A stretch of DNA of 62,815 bases from Leptolyngbyaceae cyanobacterium (lineage in GTDB: Bacteria; Cyanobacteriota; Cyanobacteriia; Cyanobacteriales; Aerosakkonemataceae). The position numbers were made by a program, and so were the translations under genes. Each line of letters starts with the position of its first letter. Position 1 is the first letter of the stretch. Shown here piece by piece: positions 1,561-62,815 of this stretch. The DNA lies in assembly GCA_036703985.1 (NCBI GenBank), contig DATNQN010000123.1, positions 1-62,815 of the forward strand, given 5' to 3'. Under the pieces are notes generated by a model. It made no database searches and had not been told where the DNA came from. It worked only from the letters and a program-made list of their open reading frames with translations.

Positions 1561-4482
1561 TTATTGGCAAATCCCCAATAGACTGGCGACTGCTTTTGCT
1601 AGTTCGGCTGGTTCTACTGGTTTGGATAAGTGAAGTTGAAAGCCTACCGAAACTGCTTGTTTGTAATCAGCTTCTCCTGCATAGGCGGTAAGTGCAATGG
1701 CGGGAATTTTTCCTCCTCGTTCTGGTGATAAGTTTCTCACTTGTCGCATTAAAGTGTAGCCGTTCATATTGGGCATTCCAATATCGCTTAACAGTAAATC
1801 TGGGTTAAGTTGGGGTAATAATTTTAGCGCCTCCAAAGCGGAATCGACGGCAGTTACTCGCGCACCATAACGTTCTAGCATAAAAGTGAGAAAGTCTAGG
1901 GTATCTATATCGTCATCTACCACTAAAATGCTGATGCCATTCAGATCGACTGTGCGATCCCATTTGGTTAGATTTTCTCTAACTTGCGATCGTACTGGCA
2001 TCAACGGTAGCAAAAGCGTAAAAGTTGCTCCTTTTCCCTCGCCTGCACTATCTGCTAAAATTTTACCTCCGTGCAGTTCCGCCAAATGGCGCACAATTGC
2101 TAACCCTAAACCTAAACCGCCAAATTTTCTAGTGGTAGTGCTATTTTCTTGACGAAAGTAATCAAATACATAAGGTAAAAAATCCGGACAGATACCTTTT
2201 CCCGTATCTTTAACTTGAATTTTAGCATATTGGAGGATTAACAATTGGCGATCGGTCGAAGCCTTTACTTCATTTTCTTCGCTCGACTGCTCGCTTTCCG
2301 ATAGCAATGACAATTGAATTTCAACTTTGCCTCCTGGTGATGTAAATTTTATCGCATTAGAAAGGAGATTCCAAATGATTTGCTGCAATCGATTTGGGTC
2401 TCCTAAAACCCAAAATTTTTCATTTTTAATAGATAATCGCTCTAATTCATTCCCCAGCATTAATTCTAAGTTACCAATCTCAATTTTTTCATTTTCCATG
2501 AAAAATTGCAAGTCAATTAATTTCGCTTCCGACGCTAAATATACTGTATCGATCGCTGCTTCAATGATAAATTTTAAGTCAACTGGACAAATGTTTAAAC
2601 TGAGCTTTCCTTGTAAAATCCGGGAAACATCTAATAAATCTTCAATCAATTGAGTTTGTAATCGAGCATTGCGTTCGATGGTTTCTAATGCGCGTTGAGT
2701 AGTCGCTCGATCGAATTCATTAGTAAGTAATAATTCCGACCAACCGACGATCGGATTGAGAGGCGATCGCAATTCGTGGGATAGCACTGCTAAAAACTCA
2801 TCTTTTATTCGGTTAGCGGCTTCTGCTTCTTCTCTAGCTGTTCTTTCTCTTTCTAATAAATTGATTCTTTCTTCTTCTTCTTGTTTGCGTTTCGTAATAT
2901 CACCAAAAGAAATCGCTACCCCATCATTTAATTTTACCGTCATATTGCGGAACCAACCGTTAATGCCTTCCGAATTATATGGAATCTCAATATCATGAGG
3001 TATTCCCGTTTCTACCACCTGCACGTATCGATCGAATAATTCGCTGTTAGTTTTATTTCCCGGTAATACTTGGAGAAGATAATGACCGACTAATTCTTCA
3101 ATCGATTTACCTAAAATTTCTGCCGCTTTGGGATTAACGTATTCCCACTCAAAATCAATAATTTTTCCCTCGGCGTTTCGCACGCTTCGCAAAATAGTGA
3201 AAGCATCTAAAGATAGTTCTTGAACGATCCGAAAACGCTCTTCACTTTGTTTAAGTGCTTCGATTGCTTGTTGCCTTTCCGTTACATCTTCAACTAAGGA
3301 AAGCACGGATACCAAGTTGCCAAATTCATCAAATAAAGCGGAGTTATACCAATCGCAATAAATAACCGAACCATGCTTGGTATAGTTACGATTGCGGTGG
3401 ATAATTTGCTTTTCTGTACCGCTGAGTATTTGGTTAACTACATCTTCAATTGCTGCTTGGTCTTCCTTAAACACAAATTGCCAATCATATATATGTTTAC
3501 CCACGACTTCTTCAGCAGACCATCCAAATATTTTTTGAGCTTTTTTCGACCACCAAGTAACTCGCAAATCTCGATCCCATTCTATTACTGCAAGTGGAGT
3601 ATTTTCTACGTGAAAAGTTAGTCGCTGCAATGCACTTTCTAAAGCTTCTCGTGCAAATTTACGTTCGGTGATGTCTTCAGCAAGACCAGCTATGCGGTAA
3701 ATTTTACCAGCATTATCTCGGAGCGGAAAACCGCGATCGCGAATCCACCTTACCGATCCATCCTGATGCAGTATCCGATATTCTTCTTCAAATCCTTCTT
3801 CAAATACCTGTTCTGAAAAAGCTTTTGTTACCCGTTCTTTATCTAGAGGATGAATTGCTTCTAACCATTCTAAAGAGTTATCATATAAACTTTCACAGGA
3901 ACGTCCCCAAATTTGTTGATAAGCAGAACTAACGTAAATTAAATGAGAATTGAGATCTCTAATCCAGAAAACATTATTCTGGATATTTTCTGATAATTGA
4001 CGAAGGCTTTCTTCAGATTTTATCAGTTTAATTTTTATTGGTTTATTCTCGTTAATGTCTTTTTTACTTAACTCCAAGCTTTCATTTTGCAAAGCGAAAG
4101 CCTTTAAGTAAAAAGCAATAATATCGGTTAATATATTGGTAAATTTATAGCCTGTTTTCGTATTGATTAAGATGCCGATAACCCCGCCCAATAACAAATT
4201 CACTGATATAAATAAAAGCAACTGGATGACTAAAGAAGGGAAATTTTCCTTGTCAGGTGATGATAATAAAAAGTGGCTATAACCAATAGCAGCTAATATG
4301 TTAGCCAGCAATGTCGTTCTTGCACTGCCATAAATAGCGCTGACAATGACTGCTAAATAAAACAGTGAGAAAAGATTTGGTACTAAGAATGGCTGGACTA
4401 GCAGGTTTAACAAAAATGCGATCGCAAACGATCCTATTGTTACAATATATGGTTGTAAGATAGTAAGTATTATTTTTAACAT
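1561..4482 (-). CDS. hybrid sensor histidine kinase/response regulator (membrane N-terminus, multiple PAS, HisKA, HATPase, C-terminal REC)
   Basis: Hydrophobic N-terminal ~150 aa. Repeated PAS-like blocks. H-box FLAVLSHELRSPLN. HATPase G-boxes (DTGKGI..GGLGLGLAI). Receiver domain with VDDD...D..MPNMNG..K. Confidence 0.8.
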   Translation of the reverse strand: MLKIILTILQPYIVTIGSFAIAFLLNLLVQPFLVPNLFSLFYLAVIVSAIYGSARTTLLANILAAIGYSHFLLSSPDKENFPSLVIQLLLFISVNLLLGGVIGILINTKTGYKFTNILTDIIAFYLKAFALQNESLELSKKDINENKPIKIKLIKSEESLRQLSENIQNNVFWIRDLNSHLIYVSSAYQQIWGRSCESLYDNSLEWLEAIHPLDKERVTKAFSEQVFEEGFEEEYRILHQDGSVRWIRDRGFPLRDNAGKIYRIAGLAEDITERKFAREALESALQRLTFHVENTPLAVIEWDRDLRVTWWSKKAQKIFGWSAEEVVGKHIYDWQFVFKEDQAAIEDVVNQILSGTEKQIIHRNRNYTKHGSVIYCDWYNSALFDEFGNLVSVLSLVEDVTERQQAIEALKQSEERFRIVQELSLDAFTILRSVRNAEGKIIDFEWEYVNPKAAEILGKSIEELVGHYLLQVLPGNKTNSELFDRYVQVVETGIPHDIEIPYNSEGINGWFRNMTVKLNDGVAISFGDITKRKQEEEERINLLERERTAREEAEAANRIKDEFLAVLSHELRSPLNPIVGWSELLLTNEFDRATTQRALETIERNARLQTQLIEDLLDVSRILQGKLSLNICPVDLKFIIEAAIDTVYLASEAKLIDLQFFMENEKIEIGNLELMLGNELERLSIKNEKFWVLGDPNRLQQIIWNLLSNAIKFTSPGGKVEIQLSLLSESEQSSEENEVKASTDRQLLILQYAKIQVKDTGKGICPDFLPYVFDYFRQENSTTTRKFGGLGLGLAIVRHLAELHGGKILADSAGEGKGATFTLLLPLMPVRSQVRENLTKWDRTVDLNGISILVVDDDIDTLDFLTFMLERYGARVTAVDSALEALKLLPQLNPDLLLSDIGMPNMNGYTLMRQVRNLSPERGGKIPAIALTAYAGEADYKQAVSVGFQLHLSKPVEPAELAKAVASLLGICQ

Positions 4483-4778
4483 AAAAATATTCTTTTATAC
4501 TGAGATAAGGTTATTCAAATGATGAAGTAGTGCAAGTGTTTGTTCTCTTATTATTTGCTCTACGATCGATACTGTATGTCACTAGCTAGGTTTTTTGGTG
4601 ACAATTCATAATTATGTAATAACTTGCATAGTATCGAGCTTACAGAATGGGTATCAAATATTTTTTTCACCATATAATAATCCTGTATTTTATGCCTTAC
4701 GTTCAAAAAACCCGCTTTCTACAGGCTTTTACGGAAGAGGGATCGCGAGCGTCAGTAATGAAAAGAAAAAACTACCAT

Positions 4779-59426: not shown

Positions 59427-61583
59427 TCATTTTGGCACAGACCAAGAACGAACTTCGCCCAAAGTGACGGGAATTCTGTCACTCACATCAACGGTAAACC
59501 GATAAACCCTCTTCGCCCTGCGACTGTTTTCCGGATCGAAAAACTTTAATATCACATCCCAACAATCGCTATTAATCCGACAAAACGGGCTTTTTTCTAC
59601 TTCAATCGTATCGAGTTGCATTCCTCTGGAAATCGCTTCAGCGAAGCTCGAAGCTGCTTGGAAAGCGTTAGTAACGGAAAAATTCAACGCCCTGTCTTTA
59701 GAAGTTTGTCCTAAATTTTGGAACTCAAAATAAACTTTATTTACGAAGCTAATAAGAGCTTGTCGCATGGCAATTTCATCAACTTGCGGTGCTTGGGCAG
59801 CGACACTTTGCAAAGCTGCTTCGACTAAATTGTTGATTTTCCAACCGTACATTCCCCTGATATTGATTAAGGTAATTACGGGAATTTCTTGCCCTGAAAA
59901 TAGCTGCACGGTTTTATCGGTGGTTTTGGCGGGAATGCTGACACGTTCGATAAAATCATCGCTGTCTTCCGGTTCAATTTGTCCCGCCAACATCAGGATC
60001 AATGTTTCGTAGACATCCGCAGCAAAACCCTGTCTTGGTTCTAAGACATAAATGGGTTTAAGTTCTTGATTGAGCGTCCAAATTAAGGCTTTGGCTTCAC
60101 TGGGATTTTCTGAGAGATAATCGACCATTTGACGGGCATCGTAGGGATTGGGGGGAATTACTGTACCGTCAATTTCAAATGCTGGCATGAGTTGTTTGAA
60201 GGTGTCGCGCCTAGCTTCGCTGCCAAAGTCGTAACCGATGGTTCCCAAGGCGTAGACGAGTTTGGAGGCGGCGCTGGGAGTGATGCCTTCGGTGGGTTGA
60301 CTGGGGGTGAGGGTAACAACCGTTGTATTGGATGGTTGCGTTGTACCGCAGTCCGCCTGGGAATCAGTGATGCTGTTGGCGAATTCGGAAAACCTAACCC
60401 CCCAACCCCCTTCCCTCGCAGGGAAGGGGGAGTCCGAAAGCCCCTCTCCTCTTAGGGGAGGGGTTGGGGAGGGGTCATACCCCTCAGTTAATTTAGCAAC
60501 AGCATCGTTGATTTCCGGGTGAATTGTGCTAAAAGGTTGAATACTGGTTAACGGTTCTCCGGTTAGTAATTGGAATGCACCGGGAATATTTAATTTACCC
60601 ATTAAACAGCGTTCCGGTTCTTCTACTTCTTTAGGGTTGCAAGGAATAGCACTATTTAAAATAGCTTGGCGAACTGCCTCGGCATCGGGTTTTTCGCCGC
60701 GTTGCAGTTGTATGCTCATTAATAATGCTGAGATTCCGGTAACAATGGGTGCAGCGCAACTGGTGCCTTTTTCGCGAATCGGTTCGTCGGTTCCCGGTTG
60801 TGCGCCTAAGATATTTTCCCCATTTGCCATTACGCCTTTACTTTGATAATCTCCACCATAATTACTGAATTTAAAAGGTTGTCCGTCATCGCGGATTGCA
60901 CCGACAGTAAGGACTCCGGGAAGAATGGCAGGAATGCACCAACATTCTCCTTTGTTGTTGCCACCAGGAGCGACAATTAAAATATTATTGTCTTGGCATT
61001 GTTTGACAGCACGAGCAAATAATTCATGGGATACCCCTGTTTGAGTGGGGTGACAGGCGGCGATGTGGATAATGTTTGCGCCTGCTTTTAAGGCTTCGTT
61101 GATAGCGTGGGTGAGGTTAATGGGAGAGATGAAGTCATCGCCTGCGAAGGAAATGGGAATATTAATAGCCGTGCAATGGGGGGCAATGCCGGGGACGGGT
61201 GAACCGTGTTGTCCTAAGATGGTACTGGCAATGTGGGTGGCATGACTGGATAAGTCGATGCGTCTGCGAATCTGTTCGGGGAACCGGGCAAAAAAGGCTT
61301 CTCTTTCTTTTTTGGTTTCGTCCTTGTTGTGGTCTGGGTCTGCTTCTTTTTTGGCTTTTTGTTGTTGGTTAAATTCTGTAGCTAATTTAAGGTAGTAATA
61401 ATATTCGTCGTTTAGTTCGATATCTTCTGCCCAATAAGGTTTAAATTGGGTAATGTTTGCGCCAACAAAGCAACCCCGTTCTAAGTCTGCTGCACCGTCG
61501 AGGATGGCGATTTTGATGCGGGGGTCGCCTTTTGTCCGCTTCCAAAGTTCCGGTATTCCGGGGATGGTGATGAGGTCGGGCAT
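59427..61583 (-). CDS. patA: cyanobactin N-terminal protease PatA/AcyA homolog: S8 subtilisin-like domain plus PatA/PatG-type C-terminal domain
   Basis: Catalytic triad blocks ILDGAADLERGCF (Asp), SHATHIASTILGQHGSPVPGIAPHC (His) and GTSCAAPIVTGISALLMS (Ser). The C-terminal ~250 aa, ending CRINSDCWDVILKFFDP...YRFTVDVSD..PVTLGEVRSWSV, match the domain shared by PatA and PatG. Confidence 0.8.
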   Translation of the reverse strand: MPDLITIPGIPELWKRTKGDPRIKIAILDGAADLERGCFVGANITQFKPYWAEDIELNDEYYYYLKLATEFNQQQKAKKEADPDHNKDETKKEREAFFARFPEQIRRRIDLSSHATHIASTILGQHGSPVPGIAPHCTAINIPISFAGDDFISPINLTHAINEALKAGANIIHIAACHPTQTGVSHELFARAVKQCQDNNILIVAPGGNNKGECWCIPAILPGVLTVGAIRDDGQPFKFSNYGGDYQSKGVMANGENILGAQPGTDEPIREKGTSCAAPIVTGISALLMSIQLQRGEKPDAEAVRQAILNSAIPCNPKEVEEPERCLMGKLNIPGAFQLLTGEPLTSIQPFSTIHPEINDAVAKLTEGYDPSPTPPLRGEGLSDSPFPAREGGWGVRFSEFANSITDSQADCGTTQPSNTTVVTLTPSQPTEGITPSAASKLVYALGTIGYDFGSEARRDTFKQLMPAFEIDGTVIPPNPYDARQMVDYLSENPSEAKALIWTLNQELKPIYVLEPRQGFAADVYETLILMLAGQIEPEDSDDFIERVSIPAKTTDKTVQLFSGQEIPVITLINIRGMYGWKINNLVEAALQSVAAQAPQVDEIAMRQALISFVNKVYFEFQNLGQTSKDRALNFSVTNAFQAASSFAEAISRGMQLDTIEVEKSPFCRINSDCWDVILKFFDPENSRRAKRVYRFTVDVSDRIPVTLGEVRSWSVPK
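60393..60476. repeat. GC-rich palindromic small dispersed repeat inserted in-frame in the patA-like linker (encodes PPLRGEGLSDSPFPAREGGWGV)
   Basis: Two adjacent hairpins CCCCCTTCCC-TCGCA-GGGAAGGGGG and CCCCTCTCC-TCTTA-GGGGAGGGG, flanked by CCCCAACCCCC / GGGGTTGGGG. Related to the element at 53942-53991. Confidence 0.5.
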
Positions 61584-61926
61584 TGGGGGATTTTAGTTAA
61601 ATGCTTAGTCGAAAATGTATTTTACGTGAATTGGTTTACCCTCAAGGATAAGATTTATAACTATAGAGATATGTGTAGGTTGGGTTTCGTTCCTCAACCC
61701 AACATTCATTCATCGATTGTGTTGGGTTTCGCTGTCGTTCGATCCAAGCTACAGTAAATAAGTTTGCAAAAGTCGCAGTCCCGTTTTGCTTCGCCACCGT
61801 GCCAGCTAACGGAAAACCCGGAACTGACTCATGTTTTACGTCAATTCATTGAGGCAAACAGAGCGCAATCGTGAGGTGGAAAAAGAGTTTTGACATGAGT
61901 TGAGGTAAGTGGTTGAATCGGGGCAG

Positions 61927-62103
61927 TTACTCCGCGTCGTCGCCCACAAACGGAGTTTGATAACAAAAATACCTATCTTCCGTTTTATCACAATGAGTAA
62001 ATCCGAAAAGGGGAACCACCCCTTTTTTTCCCGCCCAAGAAGTGGCAGTGATTTCGCGTTGCACAGGAGCAACTTGTTGGGGTCTAATATTTTTCTTTCT
62101 CAT
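61927..62103 (-). CDS. cyanobactin (anacyclamide-type) precursor peptide, 58 aa from the internal Met
   Basis: Leader MRKKNIRPQQVAPVQRE carries the conserved KKNxxPxQxxPVxR cyanobactin motif. C-terminal ...CYQTP-FVGDDAE-stop is the F(A/V)GDDAE C-terminal recognition tail, preceded by Pro. Confidence 0.7.
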   Translation of the reverse strand: MRKKNIRPQQVAPVQREITATSWAGKKGVVPLFGFTHCDKTEDRYFCYQTPFVGDDAE

Positions 62104-62177
62104 GATTGTTTGTTTCAAGCTTACTTGTTGGGATTGATTATTGACTTAATCCATTGGCTTGTCAATGCTGATACAGA

Positions 62178-62339
62178 TTACTCTGCGTCGTCGTCCGCAA
62201 AAGGAACGGCGTGGACCCACAAGGACGCCCCCACACCCACGGCGGCGGCGAACATAGCCAGCGGGCCGCGGGAGGTGCTACCAGCTTGGGGACGTTCAAC
62301 GGGAGCAGCCTGAGTGGGTTTTAGGTTTCTTTTTTTCAT
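62178..62339 (-). CDS. cyanobactin (anacyclamide-type) precursor peptide, 53 aa from the internal Met
   Basis: Leader MKKRNLKPTQAAPVERP. C-terminal ...GVGAS-LWVHAVP-FADDDAE-stop. Second precursor gene 60 bp upstream of the first, same strand. Confidence 0.7.
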   Translation of the reverse strand: MKKRNLKPTQAAPVERPQAGSTSRGPLAMFAAAVGVGASLWVHAVPFADDDAE

Positions 62340-62529
62340 GGTGTTTGAGTTCGGAGAGAACTTGTTTGATGCCAATTGTTGATTACTTAATAACTTCTGT
62401 CAAGATTCTATTGAGTTAACTTTTGTCAATGGCTCAAATACCACCCAAAACGCAACATTGAGTAGATTTTAAACTTTTATATAATAATCCTTGAGGGCGC
62501 GCATTTTATTAATAATAATGATATCGTTC

Positions 62530-62815
62530 CTACTCAACCAAACGCTTATGGGTAGTCTTCGACTCAGCTATCCAACTCATGTAAGGTTTAAGATGGCGTT
62601 CCACAAACTCCAACATCGGTGGATTGCGGCTACTAACAGCATAAGCATAATAGGGAATTGCGCGATCGTACTGACGCTGAAATGACTCTGCCATTAGCAC
62701 GATTCCTCGTCCCAAACGCTGCCATCTTTTGTCCACAAACATAGAGGTGTAGCGAAGTGTGTCAGGTGCAACGCGGTGAGTTACCATCCAACCCACGACT
62801 TCACCTTGATAGCGC
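62530..62815 (-). CDS. GNAT-family N-acetyltransferase, N-terminally truncated by the window edge
   Basis: VDKRWQRLGRGIVLM equals the acetyl-CoA-binding (R/Q)xxGxG/A motif. The reading frame is open to the last base of the window. Confidence 0.4.
   Translation of the reverse strand, partial: RYQGEVVGWMVTHRVAPDTLRYTSMFVDKRWQRLGRGIVLMAESFQRQYDRAIPYYAYAVSSRNPPMLEFVERHLKPYMSWIAESKTTHKRLVE

Follow-up and report, generated by a model that had tools for sequence, protein, structure and literature searches.

A bidirectional anacyclamide-type cyanobactin cluster in a Leptolyngbyaceae cyanobacterium: two precursor genes beside a predicted AcyG/PatG-type macrocyclase without an oxidase domain

Three adjacent genes of a Leptolyngbyaceae cyanobacterium resemble part of a cyanobactin pathway, which raises the question of which part they represent and which peptides they may specify. 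The stretch of DNA analyzed (the window) comprises 62,815 nt, and the locus studied lies on its minus strand at 59427-62375. An earlier description made from the letters alone (the sequence-only reading) regarded the three genes as the front end of the pathway, consisting of two precursor genes and a 718-aa N-terminal protease of the PatA/AcyA type. Our analysis indicated that the window very probably contains the far end of an anacyclamide-type cluster that is complete and bidirectional, in which two precursor genes, E1 and E2, each behind a promoter-like element of its own, are followed by a gene for an AcyG/PatG-type macrocyclase without an oxidase domain (the G protein). The coordinates of all features are given in Table 1. 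The host organism is uncultured. An NCBI protein identical to the 718-aa protein is named PatA/PatG family cyanobactin maturation protease and is labelled as belonging to a Leptolyngbyaceae metagenome-assembled genome (MAG), while the closest homologs of the locus were found in Kamptonema and Microcoleus. Related cyanobactin loci and contigs are designated by L-numbers. The best matches to the G protein were in L001 (a MAG, 90% identity), L002 (a Kamptonema MAG, 85%) and L003 (Microcoleus sp. SVA1_B3, 84%).

All three genes were present at the positions given by the sequence-only reading, with the G gene at 61583..59427. The conserved leaders of E1 and E2 start at ATG 62339 and ATG 62103, respectively, and the mechanical list of open reading frames (ORFs) had used TTG 62375 and TTG 62118 as starts. 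The 718-aa protein scored 868.6 bits (E 2.7e-261) against TIGR03895, the PatA/PatG family (cut-off 421 bits), and contained the Pfam domains Peptidase_S8, PatG_D and PatG_C (PF18047, 65 bits; PF18065, 128 bits). For TIGR04446, the anacyclamide/piricyclamide precursor family (cut-off 35 bits), E2 scored 68.6 bits and E1 42.5 bits; for Pfam DUF5840 (cut-off 25 bits) the scores were 60.5 and 39 bits. All three genes passed the curated family thresholds, far beyond chance, confirming the earlier assignment to an anacyclamide/piricyclamide-type cyanobactin locus. Both small ORFs proved to be true precursor genes, each having the conserved family leader, a single core ending in Pro and a variant of the acidic tail (FADDDAE in E1, FVGDDAE in E2) placed exactly at the stop codon. 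The subtilisin Asp/His/Ser blocks and the C-terminal motifs CRINSDCWDVILKFFDP, RFTVDVSD and VRSWSV reported before were also present in the 718-aa protein. Its C-terminal domain matched the DUF domain of PatG (PDB 4UVQ) with 358 bits over residues 438-717.

Since TIGR03895 and the Pfam domains are common to A and G proteins, they cannot tell the two types apart. They fit equally an N-terminal, leader-removing protease PatA/AcyA, in which case the three genes would form the front end of the pathway, and the name given by NCBI is likewise generic. However, all discriminating features pointed to the G type. Among 83 aligned protease domains from 78 related loci, the spacing between the catalytic Asp and His was strictly bimodal, being 33-34 residues in 21 A-type proteins and 70-98 residues in 62 G-type proteins, and every protein fused to an oxidase fell into the long-spacing class. 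The spacing in the 718-aa protein was 84 residues; such an insert was found in none of the 21 A-type proteins. The Peptidase_S8 match of the 718-aa protein begins only at residue 102. When the protease half was compared with the PDB, the best matches were the PatG macrocyclase structures 4H6X, 4AKS and 4AKT (341-346 bits, E about 1e-100), which aligned over residues 7-348 with the insert included. In contrast, the PatA and PagA structures (4H6W, 4H6V, 3ZXX and 3ZXY) aligned only from residue 110, with 230-277 bits. The reciprocal test with the 659-aa A-type paralog of L003 gave the opposite result: PagA and PatA matched with 518 and 446 bits (residues 5-302), and PatG with 208 bits from residue 61.

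Residues D29, H114 and S275 fall in the triad columns of all 83 homologs, indicating an intact triad; in the alignment to 4AKS, D29 corresponds to PatG D548 and H114 to PatG H618. AcyG of Anabaena sp. 90, which NCBI names subtilisin-like protease AcyG, was 72% identical to the 718-aa protein from end to end, through the insert. Within the AcyG clade the insert was strongly conserved, with many residues invariant among 18 proteins, and the invariant K76 aligned with PatG Lys594, a residue which we take to contact the acidic residue of the AYDG signal. The 718-aa protein opens directly with the protease domain, and no oxidase domain was present. Moreover, a separate and genuine 659-aa A-type gene lies upstream in the same genome, as it does in L001, L003, L005, L008, L011 and L019. 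Judged by these comparisons, the 718-aa protein is an AcyG/PatG-type macrocyclase without an oxidase domain, whose predicted activity would be removal of the tail and head-to-tail macrocyclization. The assignment to PatA/AcyA has next to no probability left and is already refuted at the sequence level. Since the enzyme is G and not A, the window genes form the back end of the pathway (E-E-G) and not the front.

When the whole window was searched by tblastn with the G protein and both precursor peptides, no second protease paralog and no further precursor gene was detected. The sequence-only reading had proposed extending the contig past position 62815 to look for partner genes. Using the E1 peptide, three Logan contigs were recovered that matched the window with 100% identity along stretches of 1139, 2380 and 2341 bp. 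One of them, L085, was identical to window positions 62815..61677 (1139 bp) and reached 7.4 kb past position 62815. In the orientation of G, its gene order was vWA-like (-), patC (-), patB (-), A (-), a third precursor gene E0 (+), Uma2, DUF29, GNAT fragment, E1 and E2, after which G follows. The A protease of L085 (positions 2518-4497) has 659 aa and scored 959 bits against TIGR03895; the PatB homolog scored 132 bits against TIGR04220 (cut-off 55 bits) and the PatC homolog 52.7 bits against TIGR04447 (cut-off 30 bits). The A, patB and patC genes lie 3.4-7 kb past the window edge on the strand opposite to G. The extension thus supplied A, B, C and E0, and the PatG/AcyG that was to be sought there is the window's own 718-aa protein, but no PatF homolog was found. 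A lack of partner genes in the genome, named in the sequence-only reading as grounds for rejecting a pathway, did not apply.

The window locus was joined with the L085 extension to give a 14.2-kb composite, and tblastn of this composite revealed neither a PatF-type prenyltransferase (LynF/TruF/PatF) nor a genuine match to the PatD heterocyclase. The single weak PatD match fell on a repeat element in the linker of G and was rejected as an artefact. No prenyltransferase gene was found in L001 between A and G either, and one was present in the relatives L003, L004 and L005. Prenylation, although named in the title of NCBIfam TIGR04446, does not appear to be encoded at the E1/E2 locus. With A, B, C, E and G linked, no PatD and a G protein without an oxidase domain, the gene content is that of an anacyclamide-type cluster. 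The arrangement, in which A-B-C diverge from the E and G genes, also corresponds to the one known from acy, apart from the missing F. In anacyclamide biosynthesis, the absence of the oxidase domain from G has been tied to the lack of heterocycles (PMC2854353). A protein of about 550 aa with two vWA-like repeats, encoded directly downstream of patA-patB-patC at L085 191-1840, was also observed in L003, L005, L011 and L019. It is not, to our knowledge, a described cyanobactin gene. Genes for Uma2-family endonucleases recurred in or beside precursor arrays (L085 5687-7150; L001, L004, L005, L012, L030 and L079), and DUF29 genes accompanied Uma2 in L085, L001 and L079. The DUF29 gene of L085 directly adjoins the junction of the deletion by which the GNAT lost its N-terminal domain.

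The borders of the cores were located by comparing more than 60 precursors from related loci. The E1 leader subtype (MKKRNLKP...PQAGSTSRDPLAMFAAGGVGA) was also found in L001, L003 and L080. Among E2-like precursors, variation sets in directly after ...G(V/M)VPL. The E0 gene on the plus strand of L085 encodes ...EKGASA/SFITAILPP/FAGDDAE, where slashes mark the predicted cleavage sites. The same rule was applied to the precursors of Phormidium autumnale CCAP 1446/10 (L022) and recovered the autumnalamide cores, ...HVGLAAS/TLRESTAMYP/FAGDDAE and ...GTVEAQ/GLDFRFP/FAGGDAE. TLRESTAMYP and GLDFRFP are the chemically determined cores of autumnalamides B and A, respectively (PMC9609003). With the rule taken from the end of conservation and checked on the autumnalamides, cleavage is predicted after GVGAS in E1 and after GVVPL in E2. 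The E2 site, of the form G-x-x-P-x, resembles the GVEPS site of patellamide precursors.

The predicted products of the cluster are the unmodified head-to-tail rings cyclo-LWVHAVP, cyclo-FGFTHCDKTEDRYFCYQTP and, from the off-window gene, cyclo-SFITAILPP. Since neither F nor D was found in the composite, plain head-to-tail rings should be formed. The ring of E2 is probably bridged by a disulfide between Cys6 and Cys15, as inferred from piricyclamides, for which such bridges were demonstrated in double-Cys cores 12-22 residues long (PMC3428304). The calculated ions were [M+H]+ 803.4562 for E1, [M+H]+ 940.5502 for E0 and [M+2H]2+ 1169.4882 for E2 with the disulfide. The final Pro of both window cores, noticed earlier, can be read directly from LWVHAVP and FGFTHCDKTEDRYFCYQTP. 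Four strings taken from both cores were not found in the searchable literature, nor are they among the anacyclamides tabulated in the 2010 review (PMC2854353), in agreement with the earlier impression that they were new.

All 57 nt of the E2 core agreed between the window, L001 and L002, three genomes with G proteins of 85-90% identity. Between the window and L002, however, the E2 leader showed five non-synonymous differences, with one more in the tail. Cyanobactin precursors usually show the opposite, a conserved leader with a variable core, and the finding suggests selection on, or recent exchange of, the E2 core. An E1-type precursor at L001 8046-8264 had a tandemly duplicated variable region with poly-Pro runs (TSMDWRIPPPPPP GTSMGWQIPPPPPP) and a single FAGDDAE tail; it represents either one core of 27 residues or a precursor with two cores that lacks an internal recognition site.

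The region upstream of each precursor gene was also analyzed. Of the promoter-like matches in the region, the two best were the elements preceding E1 and E2, the latter matching at 11 of 12 positions. The overall count of promoter-like matches was 9 compared to 5.7 +/- 2.7 expected, which is not significant alone, so only positional conservation over the cassettes carries weight. In the precursor cassettes of ten related sequences, including the window, L085, L001-L005, L008 and L080, most cassettes, regardless of leader subtype, had TTGAC(A/T) between -59 and -67 relative to the ATG and, 17 nt downstream of it, an A/T-rich hexamer. This arrangement suggests that each precursor cassette travels with its own promoter. 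Separate promoters have been reported for pirE genes (PMC3428304).

By analogy with PatA/PatG and with the acy, pir and aut systems, all of them characterised, maturation would proceed in three steps. The off-window A protease would cut the precursors after a five-residue site, GVGAS in E1 and GVVPL in E2, and free the N-terminus of the core. The G protein would then recognize the Pro-ended core with its F(A/V)(D/G)DDAE tail, form an acyl-enzyme on Ser275 and release the tail. Finally, with the Lys-rich helical insert as a cap over the active site, the acyl-enzyme would be resolved by the N-terminal amine of the core itself to give the head-to-tail ring.

Table 1. Positions of the genes and sequence elements at the cyanobactin locus of the window
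Feature	Position	Strand	Description
acyG-like gene	59427..61583	-	718-aa subtilisin-like C-terminal protease/macrocyclase (predicted) without oxidase domain; triad D29/H114/S275
C-terminal PatG_D + PatG_C (DUF) domain, codons 438-718	59430..60272	-	common to A and G proteins
GC-rich palindromic element	60381..60485	.	in-frame insertion in the G protein's variable linker; encodes ...PSPTPPLRGEGLSDSPFPAREGGWGVRF...
Macrocyclase-specific insert, codons 45-108 (FKPYWAEDIELNDEYYYYLKLATEFNQQQKAKKEADPDHNKDETKKEREAFFARFPEQIRRR)	61260..61451	-	between catalytic Asp and His
Y1 (IS200-like, REP-associated-type) transposase remnant	61713..61883	+	E2-G spacer; tblastn with L003 254-aa protein, residues 196-252, 51% identity
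Precursor E2 (58 aa, MRKKNIRPQQVAPVQR...CYQTPFVGDDAE)	61927..62103	-	leader residues 1-32; predicted core FGFTHCDKTEDRYFCYQTP; tail FVGDDAE
E2 core, codons 33-51 (predicted)	61951..62007	-	19 residues, Cys at core positions 6 and 15, Pro last
Promoter-like element before E2, TTGACA-17-AATAAT	62137..62165	-	34 nt upstream of E2 start codon; 11/12 matches
Precursor E1 (53 aa, MKKRNLKPTQAAPVER...LWVHAVPFADDDAE)	62178..62339	-	second leader subtype; leader residues 1-39 ending GVGAS; tail FADDDAE
E1 core, codons 40-46, LWVHAVP (predicted)	62202..62222	-	conserved leader stops at GVGAS, cf. GLAAS/TLRESTAMYP in AutE2
Promoter-like element before E1, TTGACA-17-AACAAT	62375..62403	-	36 nt upstream of E1 start codon
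Truncated GNAT gene, 3' part	62530..62815	-	196-aa ORF, C-terminal half only; continues to L085 7108-7698; weak GNAT matches

Several points weigh against the reading of the window as part of a complete cluster with a G-type macrocyclase. The off-window half stems from another assembly, made from a public read set, and is tied to the window only by the 1139-bp perfect overlap. When the protease domain was modelled by AlphaFold2 together with 18 close homologs, the mean predicted local distance difference test score (pLDDT) was 40.3, the insert being the only moderately confident part, with two helices predicted. Since the model was poor, support for the fold of the insert comes from the sequence alignment to PatG and not from the model. 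The N-terminal cleavage site of E2 is predicted from the point where conservation among homologs stops, which is its sole basis, and every product is a prediction from the genes alone. Finally, mobile-element debris was abundant, including three Y1 transposase remnants, the Uma2/DUF29 genes, the truncated GNAT and a palindrome in frame in the G linker.

This debris bears on the possibility that the cluster is rightly identified but silent or decaying and makes no peptide. Besides the Y1 remnant in the E2-G spacer, two more were found off-window at L085 5126-5518 and 6558-6659. At the position of the spacer, L003 and L005 have an intact Y1 transposase copy and a patF-type prenyltransferase gene; the prenyltransferase of the relatives has been lost here. 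Together with the inserted Uma2/DUF29 module, the GNAT cut down to its C-terminal half and the repeat element within the G linker, these remnants would fit a decaying locus. Precedents exist, since an insertion sequence-disrupted pir cluster is present in Microcystis NIES-843 and inactive pir clusters have been documented (PMC3428304). On the other hand, the reading frames of A, B, C and G were intact with the catalytic residues present, all three precursor genes were intact with conserved promoter-like elements, the E2 core was kept in three genomes, and the linker varies naturally among homologs. A silent cluster is for these reasons considered unlikely, and a probably functional anacyclamide-type cluster remains the preferred reading.

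Copies of the Y1 transposase, intact or fragmentary, accounted for 62 ORF matches in many of the 78 cyanobactin loci and mostly lay next to precursor or prenyltransferase genes; a gene of a mobile element that recurs in this way is unusual. The E2-G spacer also contained, at 61674-61708, an imperfect short inverted repeat (TGTAGGTTGGGTT / AACCCAACATTCA). The stretch in which it lies occurs upstream of G in L001 too, and the repeat looks like a small dispersed one.

The palindromic element in the G linker contained perfect nested inverted repeats at 60406-60416/60420-60430 and 60400-60409/60460-60469. It was absent from the linkers of the closest homologs, and one copy was present in the window. 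Since the G linker varies naturally in length and sequence among homologs, an in-frame insertion is probably tolerated. A similar peptide (...PLLRGEGSRTPPFPTREGELGGLG...) breaks into the heterocyclase of Microcoleus asticus (L019), its counterpart in the G linker being ...PLRGEGLSDSPFPAREGGWGVRF... The similarity of the two peptides points to one repeat family inserting in frame in different cyanobactin enzymes.

The truncated GNAT gene next to E1 raised the further possibility that the products of the window carry an extra acyl group. The window GNAT was 90% identical to residues 214-301 of the 301-aa GNAT of L003. In L003 and L080 this protein, with two Acetyltransf_1 stretches, was intact and encoded amid precursor genes of the E1 type; the gene was split by a stop codon in L001, the closest relative. 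In every locus that has it, the gene was flanked by the E1 leader subtype, and the E1 subtype was confined to those loci. Since the genomes carrying the GNAT are closely related, this co-occurrence may reflect shared descent. In Moorena producens (L079), a homolog with 54% identity lies beside two DUF5840 precursor genes, and was counted as independent support for the association. More distant homologs (33-42% identity) included four in lanthipeptide clusters with LanM, Nif11 and C39-transporter genes, and the cores started with Lys in two of the four. This architecture resembles the npu selidamide cluster, the likeness being one of genomic context only; in that cluster a GNAT fatty-acylates Lys1 (PMC8784127).

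Against acylated products from the window, its GNAT lacks the N-terminal domain, with 196 aa left in place of the intact two-domain protein of about 300 aa next to precursors that a selidamide-like system would have. The stop codon in L001, the absence of Lys from the E1 core LWVHAVP and the absence of RiPP (ribosomally made and post-translationally modified peptide) genes from three of the ten sampled GNAT contexts argue in the same direction. The PDB search with the GNAT returned only generic small GNATs. An extra acyl group on the window products is consequently regarded as very unlikely, and unmodified rings remain the preferred prediction. A broader proposal, that the GNAT of E1-type loci might be a leader-guided RiPP acyltransferase defining an acylated, possibly lipidated, cyanobactin subclass of which the window copy would be a decayed remnant, is doubtful. 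No report of a GNAT or acetyltransferase in a cyanobactin cluster was found in the searchable literature. The lead concerns the relatives and is not a property of the window.

Compared to characterised systems, the locus most resembled the acy cluster, which is bidirectional, lacks PatD and gives products of proteinogenic residues in which only Pro is conserved (PMC2854353). As in acy of Anabaena sp. 90, there is an oxidase-less G protein, no PatD, transcription in both directions, and one core per precursor, with an MxKKNxxPxQxAPVxR leader and a Pro-ended core followed by an FAGDDAE-type tail. Unlike acy, the 14.2-kb composite has no AcyF-type prenyltransferase, three precursor genes of two leader subtypes replace the single one, the cluster contains a truncated GNAT and remnants of mobile elements, and the tails are slightly varied. 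The piricyclamide clusters of Microcystis have 1-4 precursor genes each, with hypervariable cores of 7-22 residues and documented double-Cys cores (PMC3428304). The window cluster shares with them the several precursors, the range of core lengths, a double-Cys core and the TIGR04446 family. In contrast, identity to the Microcystis G proteins (L027, L028 and L030) is only about 54-55%, PirF is encoded in the pir clusters, and prenylation or geranylation occurs in some pir products. The aut cluster of L022 comes, like the closest named relatives of the window locus, from a filamentous oscillatorian, and has two precursor genes with FAGDDAE and FAGGDAE tails. It differs in a G protein of 60% identity, in its layout as one operon in which A shares the strand, and in the Arg-N-prenylase AutF.

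At the level of the enzyme, the 718-aa protein shares the subtilisin fold, the D/H/S triad and the Asp-His insert with the PatG macrocyclase (4AKS, 4AKT and 4H6X). PatG, however, has an N-terminal oxidase domain and recognizes AYDG after a heterocycle or Pro, whereas the insert of the 718-aa protein is 13-14 residues longer and the tail to be bound is F(A/V)(D/G)DDAE. PatA and PagA (4H6V, 4H6W and 3ZXX) have in common with it the S8 core, the PatG_D and PatG_C domains and TIGR03895, but they lack the insert (spacing 33-34) and align only from residue 110, with lower scores. Multiple precursor genes and hypervariable cores are the norm for the anacyclamide/piricyclamide family (PMC3428304, PMC2854353). 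What is new here is the core sequences, while the multiple precursors, the 7- and 19-residue cores, the double Cys, the oxidase-less G protein and the bidirectional layout all have precedents in acy, pir and aut.

Correcting A to G reversed the place to look for the rest of the pathway, and the re-analysis also recovered the missing half of the cluster on L085. The understanding of cyanobactin biosynthesis is left unchanged by these results. New chemistry could come only from the association of the GNAT with cyanobactin loci in the relatives, and an acylated cyanobactin subclass, if true, is described by no paper in the searchable literature. For the family itself, three predicted cyclic peptides are added to the cyanobactin catalogue, one of them a 19-residue double-Cys ring with its core kept in three genomes, and the minimal cluster with A and G only, without prenylation or heterocyclization, could serve as a simple macrocyclization toolkit.

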